A stretch of 64,000 nucleotides of DNA from Patescibacteria group bacterium (GCA_021734125.1 JAIPJN010000001.1:26957-90956); one strand, 5' to 3'; shown: positions 7,526 through 61,844, numbered from the stretch's first letter. Notes: generated from the sequence alone by a model not told the origin. Translations and numbers: made by a program.

Positions 7526-7601
7526 GGGTGTATAGCTCAGTTGGTTAGAGCGCGACTCTTATAAAGTCGAGGTCCCTGGTTCAAGTCCAGGTACACCCAC
7601 C
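7526..7601 (+). tRNA. tRNA-Ile with anticodon UAU, which decodes AUA
   Basis: Cloverleaf read by hand. Acceptor GGGTGTA/TACACCC; D-arm GCTC-AGTTGGTTA-GAGC; anticodon stem CGACT/AGTCG with loop CTTATAA, giving U33 and anticodon TAT; T-arm CCTGG-TTCAAGT-CCAGG. The body closely resembles the spacer-type tRNA-Ile(GAU). Confidence 0.7.
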
Positions 7602-7657: not shown

Positions 7658-7733
7658 GGGCCCTTAGCTCAGTTGGCTAGAGCGCCTCGTTTGCACCGAG
7701 GAGGTCGCAGGTTCAACTCCTGTAGGGTCCACC
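7658..7733 (+). tRNA. tRNA-Ala (UGC)
   Basis: GGGCCCT acceptor with the G3:U70 alanine identity pair. Anticodon stem CCTCG/CGAGG with loop TTTGCAC. T-loop TTCAACT. Confidence 0.85.
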
Positions 7734-27729: not shown

Positions 27730-28162
27730 TATTTTTTAAAATTTTAAATATAAGTATTCCTGTTAAGATAATAATAAATATATCTACTAAGTTAAAAATG
27801 ACTAAGTTAAAAACATTAAAATAATCTATAACATAGCCATAATATAATCTATCATAAAGATTTGATGTTGATATTAATATAAGAATTAATAATATATTGT
27901 TTATATTATACTTATTTTTTTTATTTAAGATTAAAAATAAAATTAATATTATAAAAAAAGACACAGAAAATAATATTGATAACCAATTTTCTGTGCTTAT
28001 ACCAAAACTTAAACCATAATTTTTAAATGTCTCTAAAGAAATGTAATTATTTAAAATAATATTTTTTGGAACTTTTAAAAAATAGTATTTAATAAGTCTA
28101 TCAAATATTAATACAATAAAAAAAGAAACAAAAATTATTTGTTTTTTTGTTTTAGATAACAT
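27719..28162 (-). CDS. lspA: Lipoprotein signal peptidase II
   Basis: 4 TM helices. NYGLSFGI matches the LspA N(T)GAAF box, and VIDYF matches the downstream Asp box. Confidence 0.5.
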   Translation of the reverse strand: MLSKTKKQIIFVSFFIVLIFDRLIKYYFLKVPKNIILNNYISLETFKNYGLSFGISTENWLSILFSVSFFIILILFLILNKKNKYNINNILLILILISTSNLYDRLYYGYVIDYFNVFNLVIFNLVDIFIIILTGILIFKILKNNDK

Positions 28163-28520
28163 CTTTTTCTATTTTTCTTTGGCATTCAGAACAATATAAC
28201 GCACTAGGAAAATATTCTAGCCTTTTTTTATCTATTTTTTTTGAACAATGGTCACATTTACCATATGTTCCTTTTTCTATTTTATTTAAAGCTTTTTCAT
28301 ATTGCTTTAAATCTTTTACAAAAGAATTTATAAGTGAATTTTTATCTAATTGATCAGATAATTCTGTTGCATTATCTTCATCTGCTGAACCATATTCTTC
28401 ATGAAGAGCTGTATAATCTCCATCACTATCTTTTGTAGCTATTTGAGACAACTTTTCTATTGTCTCCTCTTTTTGTTTAATAAGGATTTCTTTAAATTTT
28501 TTTAATTCTGCTTTATTCAT
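28152..28520 (-). CDS. DksA/TraR-family C4 zinc-finger protein
   Basis: C-terminal CDHC...CSEC zinc ribbon in the 122-aa ORF. Confidence 0.6.
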   Translation of the reverse strand: MNKAELKKFKEILIKQKEETIEKLSQIATKDSDGDYTALHEEYGSADEDNATELSDQLDKNSLINSFVKDLKQYEKALNKIEKGTYGKCDHCSKKIDKKRLEYFPSALYCSECQRKIEKDVI

Positions 28521-28627
28521 TTTTAGTGAATTAATTTTAAAATACTATATAAAAAATAGTAAACACACTATATCATTTTTATAATAAGTTTACAATATTA
28601 ATCTAATAAATTTTCTTAATAAAAAAA

Positions 28628-28754
28628 GGCCGAGAGATTTTACCCTTAGCTTCGGAACTTGCTTATACTAGGATTACTCATTAATTGAATTAATAAATTA
28701 TCACTAGTATGAGTAAGTTCCGAAAATTATTATTTTTTAAAGGGCCTCTCGGCT
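28628..28754 (+). ncRNA. Candidate structured RNA, or an unusually long bidirectional terminator. It is a 127-nt extended hairpin made of an 8-bp GC clamp, an asymmetric internal loop (14 versus 21 nt), a 21-bp stem, and an apical mini-palindrome TTAATTGAATTAA.
   Basis: GGCCGAGAG...CTCTCGGC for the outer clamp. TTCGGAACTTGCTTATACTAG pairs with CTAGTATGAGTAAGTTCCGAA. The two mismatches are G·U and U·G on the plus strand only. U-rich tracts lie on both sides. Confidence 0.3.
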
Positions 28755-28972
28755 ATTTATTTTTGTTATCAATTATTTCTTATAAGAATTAATTGAAATT
28801 TTCGTTGCTACATCAACTTTTTTCTTACCATTTCTAATGGTTAAACTCATAAATTTTACCCCAGATAAATTTTTTATTTTTATCTTGGAACTTATAAATT
28901 TCTCCTTTTTATTTTTATTATCTATTGTTTTAAATACTTAAAGTAGAAGTATTTGTATAAAACAGTAAGAAT

Positions 28973-29012
28973 GGAACTTATATGAAAGAATATTTCATAT
29001 AAGATCTATTCC
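28973..29012. terminator. Hairpin downstream of the minus-strand gene 29153..30475
   Basis: Stem CTTATATGAAA, loop GAATA, stem TTTCATATAAG (11 bp), extended by GGAA/TTCC. Confidence 0.4.
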
Positions 29013-29152
29013 TTGATAACCTTTTATTTTTTATGAACCTTTACTTTATTACAATTCTATTATATCACTTATTTTACTTATATGCAATATCTTAGTTATA
29101 TTTATTTAATTTTTTTTGCTAATTTTAGGGTTTAAATAATTGAACAATATTT

Positions 29153-30475
29153 TTATTCAAATATTATTTTTATGTTATTATCGCTATTTATAATGTTTAT
29201 GTATATGTTTTTAAGGCTTATTTTTAAGACATTATTATTTTTTCTTTCTTCAATACTATTTATTAATTTTAAATCATTGGCAATTGAAAAATATCTACCA
29301 TCTATAAGAGAATAATATACTTCCCCATTATTCTCTATTTTTAGACCAAAAATTTCTTTATTTTTATCTTTATATAGTTCTTTAAATTGAACATTTTTTA
29401 TATTCATTATTAATTCTTTTACATATGTTCCATCTTCTAGTTTAATTTCTTTAATTTCTGGAGATTCCATTGCAGCATGTTGTAAAAAAATATCTTTTAC
29501 ATTTATAATTTCATTTATATAATGGTTTAAATTTTTTAAATCAAATAATATACAAAATTTGTTTATTTTTTTATCCTCAATGTTTATATAAACATCAGAA
29601 TTATTATTTAGCAGAGTATCTATTTTTTCTTGATTAAATTTATATTTATCTTCAAAATTAGCTTTTAAATCCATAAACCATTTAAATTGTTCATTATTTT
29701 TTGAAAGTTTATATAATTTTTGATAAAAATTTAGTAAATTTATTTCATTTAATAAAATATAATTTTCATCAGCTTTTGATATATTATATTTTATCTCATC
29801 TTCTTCTATTTTTTTATAATTTGAATTTTTTATATTAAATTCTAAATCCTTAGAATCGTTTATAAAAGCAGTTATTTTAGTTTTTTTGTCTTTAAAATTA
29901 ATATTGTTTAAGATATTTTCAAATTCTGAATTAGTAATTAATCCTTTTATAAAATTTTGGTTTTTAAATAAATAGATAGATAAATAATCTTTATAATTAT
30001 CTTTAAAATACTTATATTTTTCAATTTCTAAATTAGGAGTATTGGATATATAAACTATTGAATTAACTTCTTTTACATATAATTTACTATTTATTGATAA
30101 ATTATTATTTATAATTCTCTCTAAAACTTCTATATTTGTATTAATATTTTTGCCTATTCTGTTCTTTCTTAAAATAAATCCAAAATTATTGTTTTTGTTA
30201 TAAAAAAAGCTAATTTCTTTTTGATAATATTTTTTAATATTTTCTAATTCCTTTATATTTAAAAAATCTTTGTCTTTTAAAAATTTTAAGAAATTATTCC
30301 CAGGTTTAGTATAGTTACTATAATTTAAATTTAAATAAATATCTGTATTTTTTGGAGTATAAAAAATTAAACTATCAAATCCTTTTTGATATAAAAATAA
30401 TATAATTAAAAATAATATTATAAATATAATTTCAAATATTATAAGTAATATTTTAGTACTTTTTTTAATCTTCAT
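29153..30475 (-). CDS. Hypothetical N-terminally membrane-anchored protein (440 aa)
   Basis: One N-terminal TM helix. The rest is low-complexity and Lys/Asn-rich with no recognisable motif. Confidence 0.4.
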   Translation of the reverse strand: MKIKKSTKILLIIFEIIFIILFLIILFLYQKGFDSLIFYTPKNTDIYLNLNYSNYTKPGNNFLKFLKDKDFLNIKELENIKKYYQKEISFFYNKNNNFGFILRKNRIGKNINTNIEVLERIINNNLSINSKLYVKEVNSIVYISNTPNLEIEKYKYFKDNYKDYLSIYLFKNQNFIKGLITNSEFENILNNINFKDKKTKITAFINDSKDLEFNIKNSNYKKIEEDEIKYNISKADENYILLNEINLLNFYQKLYKLSKNNEQFKWFMDLKANFEDKYKFNQEKIDTLLNNNSDVYINIEDKKINKFCILFDLKNLNHYINEIINVKDIFLQHAAMESPEIKEIKLEDGTYVKELIMNIKNVQFKELYKDKNKEIFGLKIENNGEVYYSLIDGRYFSIANDLKLINSIEERKNNNVLKISLKNIYINIINSDNNIKIIFE

Positions 30476-30537
30476 TTGTTAATTATATCACAAAATTTAA
30501 GGGTTAACGATTATTAGCCCTTAAAAACTTATTTATT

Positions 30538-32733: not shown

Positions 32734-32849
32734 TTTTGATATTTCCTTTTGAGGCTAATAAATATACTCCAGACTAGAATTTTTATTCTAAGCCTAACTG
32801 TATATTTATTAACCTTATTAATAATAAATTATTTTATATTGTTTATTTT

Positions 32850-32886
32850 AAAAAAAGCGTAACTTATAAAAAATCACGCCTTTTTA
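32850..32886 (-). terminator. Hairpin plus U-tract between rpsO and pnp
   Basis: Minus strand reads GGCGUGA...UUACGC followed by UUUUUUUU. Confidence 0.4.
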
Positions 32887-32888
32887 TA

Positions 32889-36320: not shown

Positions 36321-36583
36321 TTTTTATTTAATTTTAAATATTACTATTTAAGTTTACCAAAAAGTCCTCTAATTAACAATCTAAATAGCTATTGACATAT
36401 TATAATAAACATGATATTATCTAGTATACCTTAAAAAAATAATGCTTATAAATCTGTGGGCACGACAAGCGGGAGATTATTTTAGTAGGATAAAATGGAT
36501 AACTCTATTTTATATCTGCCTGTGATCTTTTTGCTCACAGTTTTATGTGCATTATTTTTTTTATTTAAAAAAATATATTTTTT

Positions 36584-36667
36584 ATTTTTTTATTTTTATA
36601 AAGGACCAACGGTTGTTGGTTTTTATTTTTATTTTTATAAAGGGCCAGCGATCGCTGGCCCCTACCT
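36584..36667. repeat. Tandem pair of palindromic-element units. Unit 1 has the degenerate core GGACCAACGGTTGTTGGT. Unit 2 has the perfect core GGGCCAGCGATCGCTGGCCC then CTACCT. The two units share the leader tttttatttttataaagg.
   Basis: Direct duplication visible in the sequence. The spurious ORF 36495..36749 translates both copies as FYFYKGPTVVGF and FYFYKGPAIAGP. Confidence 0.8.
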
Positions 36668-36670
36668 TTT

Positions 36671-38479
36671 TTATTCATTTTCATTAGCTTCTTGCTCACA
36701 AATTTCTTCAGATTTTCCCCTTAAACATACTTGTTGCCAAGGTACATAGTGACTTTTAAAAGTTACTTCTTTTTTTTCTCCATCTTTATATTCAACTATA
36801 TAATCAAATTCAGCATCTGCTCCGTTATGTGCTAATTCAGTACATTTAACTTCTCCTTCTTCTAAATCACAAGTATCAGTCCATTTTGTTGGAGGCGGTG
36901 ATACTATATTTTTTATTATAGGTTCTGTTATTGTAATTTTCCTATCATCATATGTGCCCCAAATTGTATATTTTAAATCATAATCATCTATTTCAGTCAT
37001 TATTAAAATATAATTTGGAGTATCATTTAAAAATCTCATATCAGGTTTAGGATAATATATAGTTGCATCCGTTCCTGCGGGTTCATAAAAACTTACTCTA
37101 TATGAATGATTTCTTCTTTCTATTATGGGAAGCCCCGCAGAAAGAGCCACCCTAAATGTTGTTGTTCCGACTTGACATAATCCTCCACCATATTCTTTTA
37201 TTGTTTCATTTCCTTTTATAACTAATTCTGGTAAATATCCTTTTTCTGAACTTATTACTCCTAACGTATTAATGAGAGAAAATTCTTCCCCTGGTTTTAC
37301 TAGTGTTCCATTTACATAAGATGATCCTAATTCTATATTATGAATTCTATTTCTAGATGATCCATAAAAATTTGATTCTCCTTCTCCTAATTTATCTATT
37401 AGTCCATATTTTACTACTTCACTATTTGTAGCTTCTGGAATTATTTCTGTTATTATTAAATCAATTTCATTTTTTAAATCTAAAATTTTATTTTCAATAA
37501 TTTCAAAAGATGCTTCTTTATCTAAAGAATAACCATTTAAAATAGGTTTAAAACTTATTACTTTATCGTTTTCTATAATTAATTCTCCTTCTTCTACATT
37601 TTTATCATTTTCTTTTGCTATTCTATCTAAAATTTCAAACATTTTTACTTTATCAATTTTTATTATAACTTTTAAAAATTCTTCTTTTTCAAAAATATAA
37701 TCAAATTTAATTAAATCTAATAAATCTTCTTTATTTAATAAATACTCTGCTTCTTTATATTTTAATTTAATAGGATTATTATTTAATATTGAAGTTGCAT
37801 TATTAAAATAATTTTCTAAATCTTCTTTTTTTATTTTTGGATTTTTTATTTCTTTGTTTAAATTTATCTTTAAATTATAAAAATTATTTTCATTAAATTT
37901 TGATTTTAATTTTTCTTTTACTTCTCCCCATACAAAAATTCTTCCATTTTTATCTTCCGTTATACTATAATTTGAATCTTCTATTACTATTCTTGAATTT
38001 TCTATTTTTTCTTCATATGGTGAAAAAATAAATTTTAATGTATCTATAAAATTATCTTTTATTTCATAATCTAAATTATATTCTTTATTTTTAAATACAT
38101 TATTAAAAAAAAGATTTAGTGTATTTATTATTTTTAAATTTTTATTTTTTAAATTATTTATAATTTCTTCTTCATTTTTAATTAGAATAATATCTTTTAT
38201 TTTAATATCTTCTTTAAAATCATCATCTTTTGATTCAAATATTATACTAGAATTTTTTATATTTTTTATTTCATTTTCAATTATAAAAACTGACTCATCT
38301 ATTTTTCTAAAAGATAAATTTTTATCTAAAAAAGTAGTTTTTGGTGGAGTATATATTAAAAATATTTTATTAATCAAAAATAATAATGTAAAAATAAAAA
38401 ATAATACTATAAAAATTTTTAATATTCTTTTATTTATTTTTTTAATATTCTTTTTATTTTTTATTTTTCTATTAAACAT
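36671..38479 (-). CDS. VanW-family protein with an N-terminal TM anchor and a Cys-rich C-terminal extension
   Basis: VanW core GGGLCQVGTTTFRVALSAGLPIIERRNHSYRVSFYEPAGTDATIYYP. Confidence 0.6.
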   Translation of the reverse strand: MFNRKIKNKKNIKKINKRILKIFIVLFFIFTLLFLINKIFLIYTPPKTTFLDKNLSFRKIDESVFIIENEIKNIKNSSIIFESKDDDFKEDIKIKDIILIKNEEEIINNLKNKNLKIINTLNLFFNNVFKNKEYNLDYEIKDNFIDTLKFIFSPYEEKIENSRIVIEDSNYSITEDKNGRIFVWGEVKEKLKSKFNENNFYNLKINLNKEIKNPKIKKEDLENYFNNATSILNNNPIKLKYKEAEYLLNKEDLLDLIKFDYIFEKEEFLKVIIKIDKVKMFEILDRIAKENDKNVEEGELIIENDKVISFKPILNGYSLDKEASFEIIENKILDLKNEIDLIITEIIPEATNSEVVKYGLIDKLGEGESNFYGSSRNRIHNIELGSSYVNGTLVKPGEEFSLINTLGVISSEKGYLPELVIKGNETIKEYGGGLCQVGTTTFRVALSAGLPIIERRNHSYRVSFYEPAGTDATIYYPKPDMRFLNDTPNYILIMTEIDDYDLKYTIWGTYDDRKITITEPIIKNIVSPPPTKWTDTCDLEEGEVKCTELAHNGADAEFDYIVEYKDGEKKEVTFKSHYVPWQQVCLRGKSEEICEQEANENE

Positions 38480-50650: not shown

Positions 50651-50768
50651 GTTCTGGCGATGACCTACTTTTCAACCTTGAAAAAGGCGTATCATCGGTG
50701 CTAAAAGGCTTAACTTCTGTGTTCGGTATGGGAACAGGTGTTACACTTTTGCTATTAATCACCAGAAC
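50651..50768 (-). rRNA. rrf: 5S rRNA
   Basis: The reverse complement contains CCCATACCGAACACAGAAGTTAAGC. Confidence 0.85.
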
Positions 50769-50864
50769 AATAATTTACTCTATCTTATCTAGTATAAGTA
50801 AAATAAATTAAAGAAAAGAATAAAGTTTCTAATATTCTAATTACATTTTAATTACATTATAAAT

Positions 50865-53845
<2,981 letters not shown>

Positions 53846-61650: not shown

Positions 61651-61750
61651 TTTTTTATGTTACTTTTTTCTAAGAATACCATCAAATATAGACTTTTTCA
61701 AATTTTTGTATTTAATTAAAAAATATTTTATAAATAAAAAGAAACATGAT

Positions 61751-61840
61751 AAATAAAAAAGAACGCGCCGCGGCGCGTTCCCACAAAAATTTATTTTCTA
61801 TTTGTAAAATAAAAGGGCCAACGATCGTTGGCCCCTACAT
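61751..61840. repeat. Tandem pair of palindromic-element units: GAACGCGCCGCGGCGCGTTC-CCACA and GGGCCAACGATCGTTGGCCC-CTACAT. Each is followed by the same tttattttctatttgtaaaa flank.
   Basis: Two perfect 20-nt palindromes 44 nt apart with a duplicated 3' flank. On the minus strand each is followed by a U-tract, so both are terminator-like for the upstream oxidoreductase operon. Confidence 0.85.
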
Positions 61841-61844
61841 AATT

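Follow-up and report, generated by a model that had tools for sequence, protein, structure and literature searches.

What does a 632-nt gap between two genes hold in a genome that has hardly any room for it? Bacteria of the candidate phyla radiation have tiny genomes with almost no spare DNA, and to our knowledge very few non-coding RNAs are known from them. The window (the whole stretch of DNA that was analysed, 64 kb, with positions counted from its first letter) has a G+C content of about 22% and a coding share of 93%. It belongs, judging by its proteins, to the Patescibacteria (candidate phyla radiation); NCBI lists the 440-aa ORF beside the gap as a 'Patescibacteria group bacterium' protein, and among GTDB species the closest PNPase shares only 51% identity. 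The genes run, on the minus strand, in the order rpsO, pnp, a gene for a 440-aa hypothetical protein, the gap, a DksA/TraR zinc-finger gene, lspA, rlmH and a Mur ligase gene. The gap spans 28521-29152, between ORFs at 28152-28520 and 29153-30475, both on the minus strand. A first-pass annotation, made from the sequence alone, had called this stretch of about 630 nt the largest non-coding gap, and rightly: among stretches without ORFs of at least 70 aa and without RNA genes, it is the longest of the window, the runner-up having 374 nt.

We consider it moderately probable that the gap encodes a clade-specific non-coding RNA on the minus strand, about 430 nt long and ending, at its 3' side, in a composite intrinsic terminator. 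The features on which the argument draws are as follows, in the order of the minus strand.

29153..30475, minus strand: upstream gene for the 440-aa hypothetical protein, with an N-terminal transmembrane anchor and no family match
29059..29087, minus strand: promoter-like site P1, with -35 TTGCAT (29087-29082), a 17-nt spacer and extended -10 TGATATAAT (29067-29059)
28763..29052, minus strand: conserved 5' domain, in which invariant A-rich linkers connect six short hairpins of the proposed RNA; a conserved ORF on neither strand
28967..29013, minus strand: hairpin H1, an 11-bp core (CUUAUAUGAAA/UUUCAUAUAAG) with an outer extension
28926..28964, minus strand: hairpin H2
28902..28909, minus strand: invariant Shine-Dalgarno-like AAAAGGAG, inside a 27-nt invariant A-rich stretch and with no conserved start codon downstream
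28843..28901, minus strand: hairpin H3, a 12-bp helix and a distal UCCA/UGGR helix
28827..28841, minus strand: hairpin H4 (ACCAUU-NGA-AAUGGU), whose loop holds the position that breaks a small ORF in relatives
28804..28817, minus strand: hairpin H5 (GUUG-N6-CAAC), with an invariant stem and a variable loop
28769..28796, minus strand: hairpin H6 (UCAAUUAAUUCU...AGAAAUAAUUGA)
28628..28754, minus strand: composite 3' hairpin in four parts, drawn from folding, alignment and pair changes on both sides
28745-28753 with 28629-28637, minus strand: basal GC clamp
28739-28743 with 28643-28647, minus strand: helix 2
within the composite hairpin, 5' side, minus strand: A-rich bulge of about 13 nt
28704-28725 with 28650-28671, minus strand: long stem
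28672-28702, minus strand: variable apical helix
28621..28627, minus strand: U7 tract, invariant in every lineage, separated by one nucleotide (C28628) from the last Watson-Crick pair of the clamp; the RNA is predicted to have its 3' end here
28567..28595, minus strand: promoter-like site P2 of the dksA-lspA-rlmH-mur operon, TTGTAA, 17 nt, TG-extended TATAGT
28152..28520, minus strand: downstream gene for a DksA/TraR-type C4 zinc-finger protein

The flanking genes show features of their own. An extended -10 TGATATAAT at 30482-30490 (minus strand), preceded by a small pnp terminator-like hairpin (AAGGG...CCCUU), ends 6 nt ahead of the ATG of the 440-aa gene, a spacing that suggests a leaderless mRNA. 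The 5' UTR of the dksA-type gene (about 45 nt; 28521-28566, minus strand) is highly conserved yet lacks a Shine-Dalgarno sequence, which rpsO has (AAAGGA). The sole strong AAGGAG of the gap sits within the proposed non-coding RNA, again with no conserved start codon downstream.

Conservation of the gap in six lineages

Relatives were recovered through the two flanking proteins and RlmH, and form six lineages with the window itself: the window; L017/L022/L025; L019/L020; L021/L023/L024; L026-L028; and L031. The gap is kept at one locus in all six, between the gene for the membrane-anchored 440-aa protein and the dksA-type gene; it measures about 620-670 nt in the relatives and is 82-93% identical to the window over its length. 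The element that the first-pass annotation proposed to look for in related genomes is present and structured at this same position in every lineage.

The most constrained part of the gap is the stretch of about 290 nt adjoining the hairpin, rather than the hairpin. The block 28757-29040 is 97.5, 95.8 and 91.2% identical to L017, L019 and L021, respectively, and the hairpin region (28621-28762) 88.7, 85.2 and 83.8%. The corresponding ranges in nine flanking genes are 88-99% for second codon positions and 70-87% for third positions, and other spacers reach 65-91%. Since the block is as well conserved as the second codon positions of housekeeping genes, and far above third positions and most spacers, these comparisons indicate that it is under strong purifying selection at nearly every base. 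In addition, its divergence scales with that of the genome, which argues against a recent sweep.

By the same comparisons, selection is clear within one genus-level clade only. Among GTDB relatives found through PNPase (36-51% identity), neither nhmmer nor a covariance model gave a match, and known RNAs in their pnp neighbourhoods were limited to tRNA and rRNA. A DksA search retrieved only this clade, with seven candidates in all; the next RlmH relatives (47-56% identity) had unrelated neighbourhoods, one of them on an archaeal contig, and intermediate relatives were absent from the searched collections. Pattern scans of metagenome and viral collections gave zero matches, in a metagenome set that also missed the known JGI loci and does not sample the clade.

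Structure of the 127-nt hairpin

The hairpin had been described as near-perfect, with an 8-bp clamp, a 21-bp stem and an apical palindrome, and it reads so in the sequence. The clamp (28629-28636/28746-28753) has eight Watson-Crick pairs, plus G28628·T28754, and the 21-bp stem (28651-28671/28704-28724) has two non-Watson-Crick positions, where the plus strand gives G·U and the minus strand A·C. Folding yields a minimum free energy of -52.3 kcal/mol (z = -9.2) for the plus strand and of -51.9 kcal/mol (z = -8.9) for the minus strand, and none of 200 shuffled sequences was equally stable. In a 150-nt sliding fold of the whole window the hairpin ranked third, with the other top-eight windows all inside the 23S rRNA gene; it is the most stable structure of the window outside rRNA. 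The asymmetric internal loop of 14 versus 21 nt that had been placed above the clamp is unpaired only in part, because a helix of 5-6 bp (CCUUU/AAGGG) is retained within it in every lineage. What stays unpaired is mainly a one-sided A-rich bulge of 13 nt close to the base. In total, the hairpin measures 127-142 nt.

The paired positions evolve as a structure would. Canonical pairs fill 97.7% of the cells across lineages, and four pairs (11 cells) are changed on both sides, versus 0-1 pairs in slid controls. A clamp G-C pair is A-U in three lineages, for example, and one stem pair is G-C in the window, G·U on the minus strand in L031 and A-U in L026. The other changes are concentrated in the apical helix and the bulges. 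The covariation that the first-pass annotation suggested seeking in the stem has thus been found, and conserved pairing with compensatory changes bears out its view of a selected, structured element as opposed to a chance palindrome.

Two observations concern the DNA of the hairpin. In L017 (7867-7905) and L025 (about 512-551), the 3' half of the putative terminator is tandemly duplicated; the repeated unit of about 37 nt comprises the helix 2 strand, the clamp strand, U7 and nine further nucleotides, and L022, of the same lineage, has no duplication. The Logan assembly of SRR12088348 breaks on either side of the inverted repeat, with L001 starting at window position 28660 and L016 ending near 28755. 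These breaks look like an artefact of the near-perfect hairpin, and the locus may be under-represented in automated assemblies.

The conserved 5' domain and its coding potential

Variation in the 5' domain falls mostly in hairpin loops. H1 is the second 11-bp hairpin that had been noticed at 28973-29012; its core is invariant, and one outer pair is broken in L031. The 12-bp helix of H3 contains two invariant U·G pairs and a third position that is G·U or A-U, all canonical on the minus strand only, and its distal UCCA/UGGR helix shows one compensatory change, C-G to U-A, in L021. The folding z-score of the domain is -4.4 on the minus strand versus -4.9 on the plus strand. The secondary structure drawn here must be taken as tentative, with 2-3 covarying pairs among relatives that are all close (82-93% identical).

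The small minus-strand ORF that the first-pass annotation examined and discarded is indeed no gene, although its coordinates are 28773-28850 and its length 25 codons, not 28783-28861 and 26 codons. In every relative, codon 6 is a stop (TGA or TAA) and a 1-nt indel follows further on; the changes cluster in one codon, which is a hairpin loop, and the other indels are not multiples of three. In the window, at least one long ORF uses TGA as its stop. Small proteins were rejected for this ORF, its upstream extension and the plus-strand ORFs, all of which meet stops or frame-shifting indels in relatives.

Separately, a five-codon mini-ORF (MSLTI/MSLTT; 28827-28850, minus strand) is common to five of the six lineages. 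A GGAG lies 8 nt upstream of it in three lineages, and the others have GGA only or nothing. Its stop (TGA; TAA in L031) falls in the H4 loop, and the window copy has lost it. The mini-ORF is probably a coincidence; a regulatory mini-ORF is possible.

Searches for known RNA families and elements

Searches against Rfam 15, at the gathering score for the whole window and at E up to 10 for the gap and four relatives, returned only chance miRNA-like matches and a partial tmRNA fragment in an A-rich stretch (8.9 bits, E = 0.3). The family scan that the first-pass annotation had proposed identified neither 6S RNA nor any other family at E up to 10, with no 6S hit on either strand of the window or of the relatives, and ARAGORN found no tmRNA. 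Housekeeping RNAs (RNase P RNA, tmRNA and SRP RNA) were rejected on the negative Rfam and ARAGORN results and on the absence, by eye, of a GAGGAAAGUCC-type P4 motif and of a T-arm/ACCA end. A literature search found no description of the proposed RNA.

Several other kinds of element were considered and set aside. A TnpB/Cas12-like guide RNA does not fit the neighbouring 440-aa protein, which is membrane-anchored, has a single cysteine and matches no family, and a retron lacks a reverse transcriptase nearby. A replication origin or dif site was rejected, there being neither a skew turn nor a switch of gene orientation, and the likeness of H1 to a Xer site being lost on alignment by eye. Dispersed copies, which would have marked the hairpin as a MITE, did not appear: the 64-kb window and about 310 kb of other loci hold no second copy, and the repeat scan, nhmmer and covariance model R1 all gave one copy per genome fragment, present in six of six lineages.

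The ARAGORN scan also placed a tRNA-Ile with anticodon UAU next to tRNA-Ala(UGC), at 7526-7601 and 7658-7733 (both plus strand). An Ile/Ala tRNA pair usually lies in the 16S-23S spacer and has Ile(GAU), and Ile(UAU) tRNA is rare in bacteria. This pair stands alone, far from the 23S/5S genes (50652-53844, minus strand), and its Ile(UAU) tRNA may be related to heavy AUA use in a genome of 22% G+C.

Promoter-like sites and terminator features

The conserved 5' domain is preceded on the minus strand by P1. Apart from one T-to-C change in L022, every lineage essentially retains the -10 hexamer of P1 and the TTGC of its -35, amid a spacer and flanks that vary. Its predicted start lies near 29052. 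The -35 has three of six consensus bases, and a generic promoter scan missed the site; the TGNTATAAT motif is not enriched in the window (14 found versus 11 expected). The hexamers of P2 are largely retained as well (-35 TTGTAA, TTGTAT or TTGTGT), and the stretch upstream of them is poorly conserved. The layout TTGxxx-17-TAxxxT, which in P1 and P2 takes the form TTGnnn-17-TGnTAnnnT, also occurs upstream of the 23S rRNA and rpsO genes.

At the other end, the minus-strand clamp (GCCGAGAG/CUCUCGGC) leads through a single C into U7. U-rich tracts had been noted after the clamp on both strands; the one on the minus strand is the invariant U7, and the one on the plus strand is present but interrupted (UAUUUAUUUUUG). 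The ordinary terminators of the window consist of GC stems of 9-10 bp with 4-nt loops, followed by a U-run. The hairpin lies downstream of the 440-aa gene and P1, in the same orientation, with the separate promoter-like site P2 after it and 100 nt from U7 to the dksA ATG. Among the suggestions of the first-pass annotation, that of an oversized terminator was close to the mark.

Elsewhere in the window, tandem pairs of canonical GC-rich terminators (GGGGCCAACG..., GGGAACGCGCC..., GGGGCCAGCG...) at 61700-61844 and 36560-36700 (minus strand) contrast sharply with the 22% G+C background and set the normal terminator design of this genome.

These features would also serve a long 3' UTR of the 440-aa gene (or of a pnp/440-aa transcript) that contains the conserved block and ends at the hairpin, a reading we regard as unlikely. 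The block does share its orientation with the 440-aa gene, which has no GC-rich terminator of its own but only a weak AU-rich inverted repeat spanning the stop codon, and the terminator features of the hairpin suit either reading equally. Against such a UTR, the P1 hexamers are nearly constant amid a variable spacer and flanks, and conservation jumps only about 15 nt downstream of P1. For a 3' UTR, conservation like that of second codon positions would be out of the ordinary in itself, and it would imply a functional RNA all the same. If P1 is inactive, the block is possibly the 3' UTR of the 440-aa gene.

A structured, conserved RNA and a terminator ahead of a same-strand operon form the classic layout of riboswitches and T-boxes. 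The order of domain, predicted terminator and operon seen here would fit this layout, and synteny with dksA is fixed in six of six lineages, as for a cis-acting leader or attenuator of the dksA-lspA-rlmH operon in which the domain of about 290 nt would sense a signal and the hairpin would be the regulated terminator. We nevertheless consider this quite unlikely. P2, predicted as a promoter from its largely conserved hexamers, lies between U7 and dksA, within the 100 nt that separate U7 from the ATG; the hairpin is extremely stable (-52 kcal/mol); inspection of the 5' domain by eye showed no conserved alternative partner for either clamp strand; and Rfam gave no leader or riboswitch match.

RNA or DNA, and which strand

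All of the hairpins are strand-symmetric inverted repeats with similar z-scores on both strands, and the assemblies of the source sample break exactly at the large one. A DNA-level element, such as clustered palindromes for protein binding, a recombination site or a relic of a mobile palindromic element, would account for these facts, and is in our judgement very unlikely. H3 needs G·U pairs, which are meaningless in duplex DNA, and the invariant A-rich linkers are not palindromic. The element is also single-copy over the 64 kb of the window and some 310 kb from other loci, its position is fixed in six lineages, and the GC-skew turn and the gene-orientation switch that an origin or terminus would show are both absent.

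For an RNA, the strand has to be chosen. The first-pass annotation favoured a plus-strand RNA of about 130 nt, 6S-like or otherwise regulatory and consisting of the hairpin alone, on the ground that the two mismatches of the long stem are G·U-compatible only on that strand. This argument fails in the relatives. The two positions do remain C·A or A·C on the minus strand in four and three of the first five lineages, but they become A-U or U-A in L017 and L019, and the stems of L019, L021, L022 and L031 contain G·U pairs available to the minus strand alone. Over the strand-symmetric helices, nine G·U pairs are minus-only versus three plus-only, a count that leaves out the two A·C positions of the long stem; with these included, the comparison is suggestive of the minus strand, not decisive. 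A strand argument from G·U and A·C positions in a single sequence is unreliable.

Folding models barely separate the strands. The consensus folding energy is -85.1 kcal/mol on the minus strand versus -77.1 kcal/mol on the plus strand (-87.8 versus -83.6 with L031), and single sequences fold better on the minus strand in five of seven cases and on the plus strand in two lineages. The sole plus-strand -10-like hexamer upstream of the hairpin lies in the P2 spacer and is not conserved (TATAAC in L019, TAAGAT in L031). The choice of the minus strand rests on context: the flanking genes, the U·G pairs of H3, P1 and P2, the invariant U7 and the non-conserved plus-strand hexamer. It is from such features that we infer transcription of the RNA, its strand, its ends and its termination.

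Although the plus strand folds equally well and also has a U-rich tract after the clamp, the plus-strand RNA is less likely still than a DNA-level element: its mismatches turn Watson-Crick in L017 and L019, minus-only G·U pairs occur in four relatives, no conserved promoter precedes it, no 6S family matches, its 'bubble' is largely paired and lies near the base instead of centrally, its 127-142 nt fall below known 6S RNA lengths, and the more conserved 290 nt beside it would be left unexplained.

Proposed RNA and its possible roles

The locus shows conservation, pairing with compensatory changes, a single copy, no conserved ORF and no Rfam match. The minus-strand RNA of about 430 nt that we prefer would be driven by a sigma-70-type promoter with an extended -10 (29087-29059). 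Its first 290 nt or so (about 29052-28763) would fold into six short hairpins with A-rich linkers, and the last 135 nt or so would form the region of the 127-nt hairpin. There the basal GC-rich clamp of 8-9 bp, with U7, would act as a rho-independent terminator and set the 3' end of the RNA at about 28621, insulating the downstream dksA-lspA-rlmH operon, which would start from its own promoter (28595-28567). The inner 21-bp stem and the apical helix would take the place of the usual 4-nt terminator loop. Compensatory substitutions keep this inner rod paired, and it therefore appears to be selected for itself, beyond termination. The rod might block 3' exonucleases, stabilise the 3' end or bind a protein, such as one that recognises double-stranded RNA, and is probably a functional part of the RNA.

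This RNA appears to be previously undescribed, and the most fitting label for it is that of a candidate bacterial non-coding RNA, as yet unclassified, whose composite terminator is unusual. A stronger version, which we hold to be unlikely, is that the gap encodes an abundant structured RNA of housekeeping grade that represents a new class in a deep-branching, very AT-rich lineage of the candidate phyla radiation; of its roughly 430 nt, the 5' domain would be under the same constraint as second codon positions, and the 3' rod would serve at once as terminator and as protein-binding platform. If that were so, the RNA, encoded beside dksA, might regulate RNA polymerase or scaffold a ribonucleoprotein. 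In either form, the locus makes a strong candidate for a functional RNA in organisms that cannot as yet be cultured alone: six lineages retain a gap of 630 nt, and some 290 nt of it evolve at the slow pace of second codon positions. The locus also illustrates that the constraint on a larger element can be weakest in the very hairpin that catches the eye.

Comparison with known systems

6S RNA (ssrS; RF00013 and related families) is, like the hairpin described here, a rod in which an unpaired internal region separates a closed basal stem from a long distal one; the hairpin in addition adjoins the gene for a factor of the RNA-polymerase-binding DksA type. 6S RNAs measure about 150-200 nt and have a large two-sided central bubble between long closing and terminal stems. 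The hairpin, in contrast, has 127-142 nt and a one-sided 13-nt bulge near its base, and is apparently the 3' domain of a longer RNA; the 6S covariance model did not match, and helix 2, with covariation, pairs the internal region. The 6S-like reading of the first-pass annotation is accordingly not supported, either by Rfam, by geometry and size, or by a conserved plus-strand promoter.

Large orphan RNAs of bacteria that were discovered through intergenic conservation, such as OLE, raiA, ROOL and GOLLD, resemble the locus, which is an unusually long, highly conserved and ORF-free gap with several hairpins in a compact genome. The RNA proposed here differs from them in having no match in Rfam 15 and in coming from a single genus-level clade with thin covariation. 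MITE and REP palindromes are likewise long, near-perfect intergenic inverted repeats; unlike them, the hairpin is single-copy, evolves by compensation and occupies one fixed locus in six lineages, and neither a target-site duplication nor a terminal-repeat signature was noticed at it.

The rpsO-pnp leader of E. coli contains an autoregulatory hairpin that is cleaved by RNase III. The present hairpin likewise has a long, perfect double-stranded stem, exceeding 20 bp, in the neighbourhood of pnp. It closes a separate unit, however, two genes downstream, and its cleavage by RNase III is, by this analogy, only a possibility. The rpsO-pnp spacer of the window itself (32738-32887, minus strand; total minimum free energy -43.3 kcal/mol, z = -7.9) has an rpsO terminator (AAAAAGGCGUGA...ACGCUUUUUUU) followed, just upstream of pnp, by a hairpin of about 30 bp that recalls the E. 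coli pnp leader.

Intrinsic terminators typically have stems of 5-14 bp and loops of 3-8 nt. The hairpin agrees with them in its GC-rich basal stem directly before U7, in its position downstream of a same-strand unit and in a build like that of the other terminators of the genome; it lacks their compact size, with 127 nt, and was missed by a generic terminator scan. Where they have a loop, it has a structure of about 110 nt, comprising helix 2, the A-rich bulge, the 21-bp stem and the apical helix, that is maintained by compensatory changes. The inner hairpin is unnecessary for termination and therefore probably has a second role, and a terminator with a selected 110-nt insert offers a test case for how much structure intrinsic terminators tolerate.
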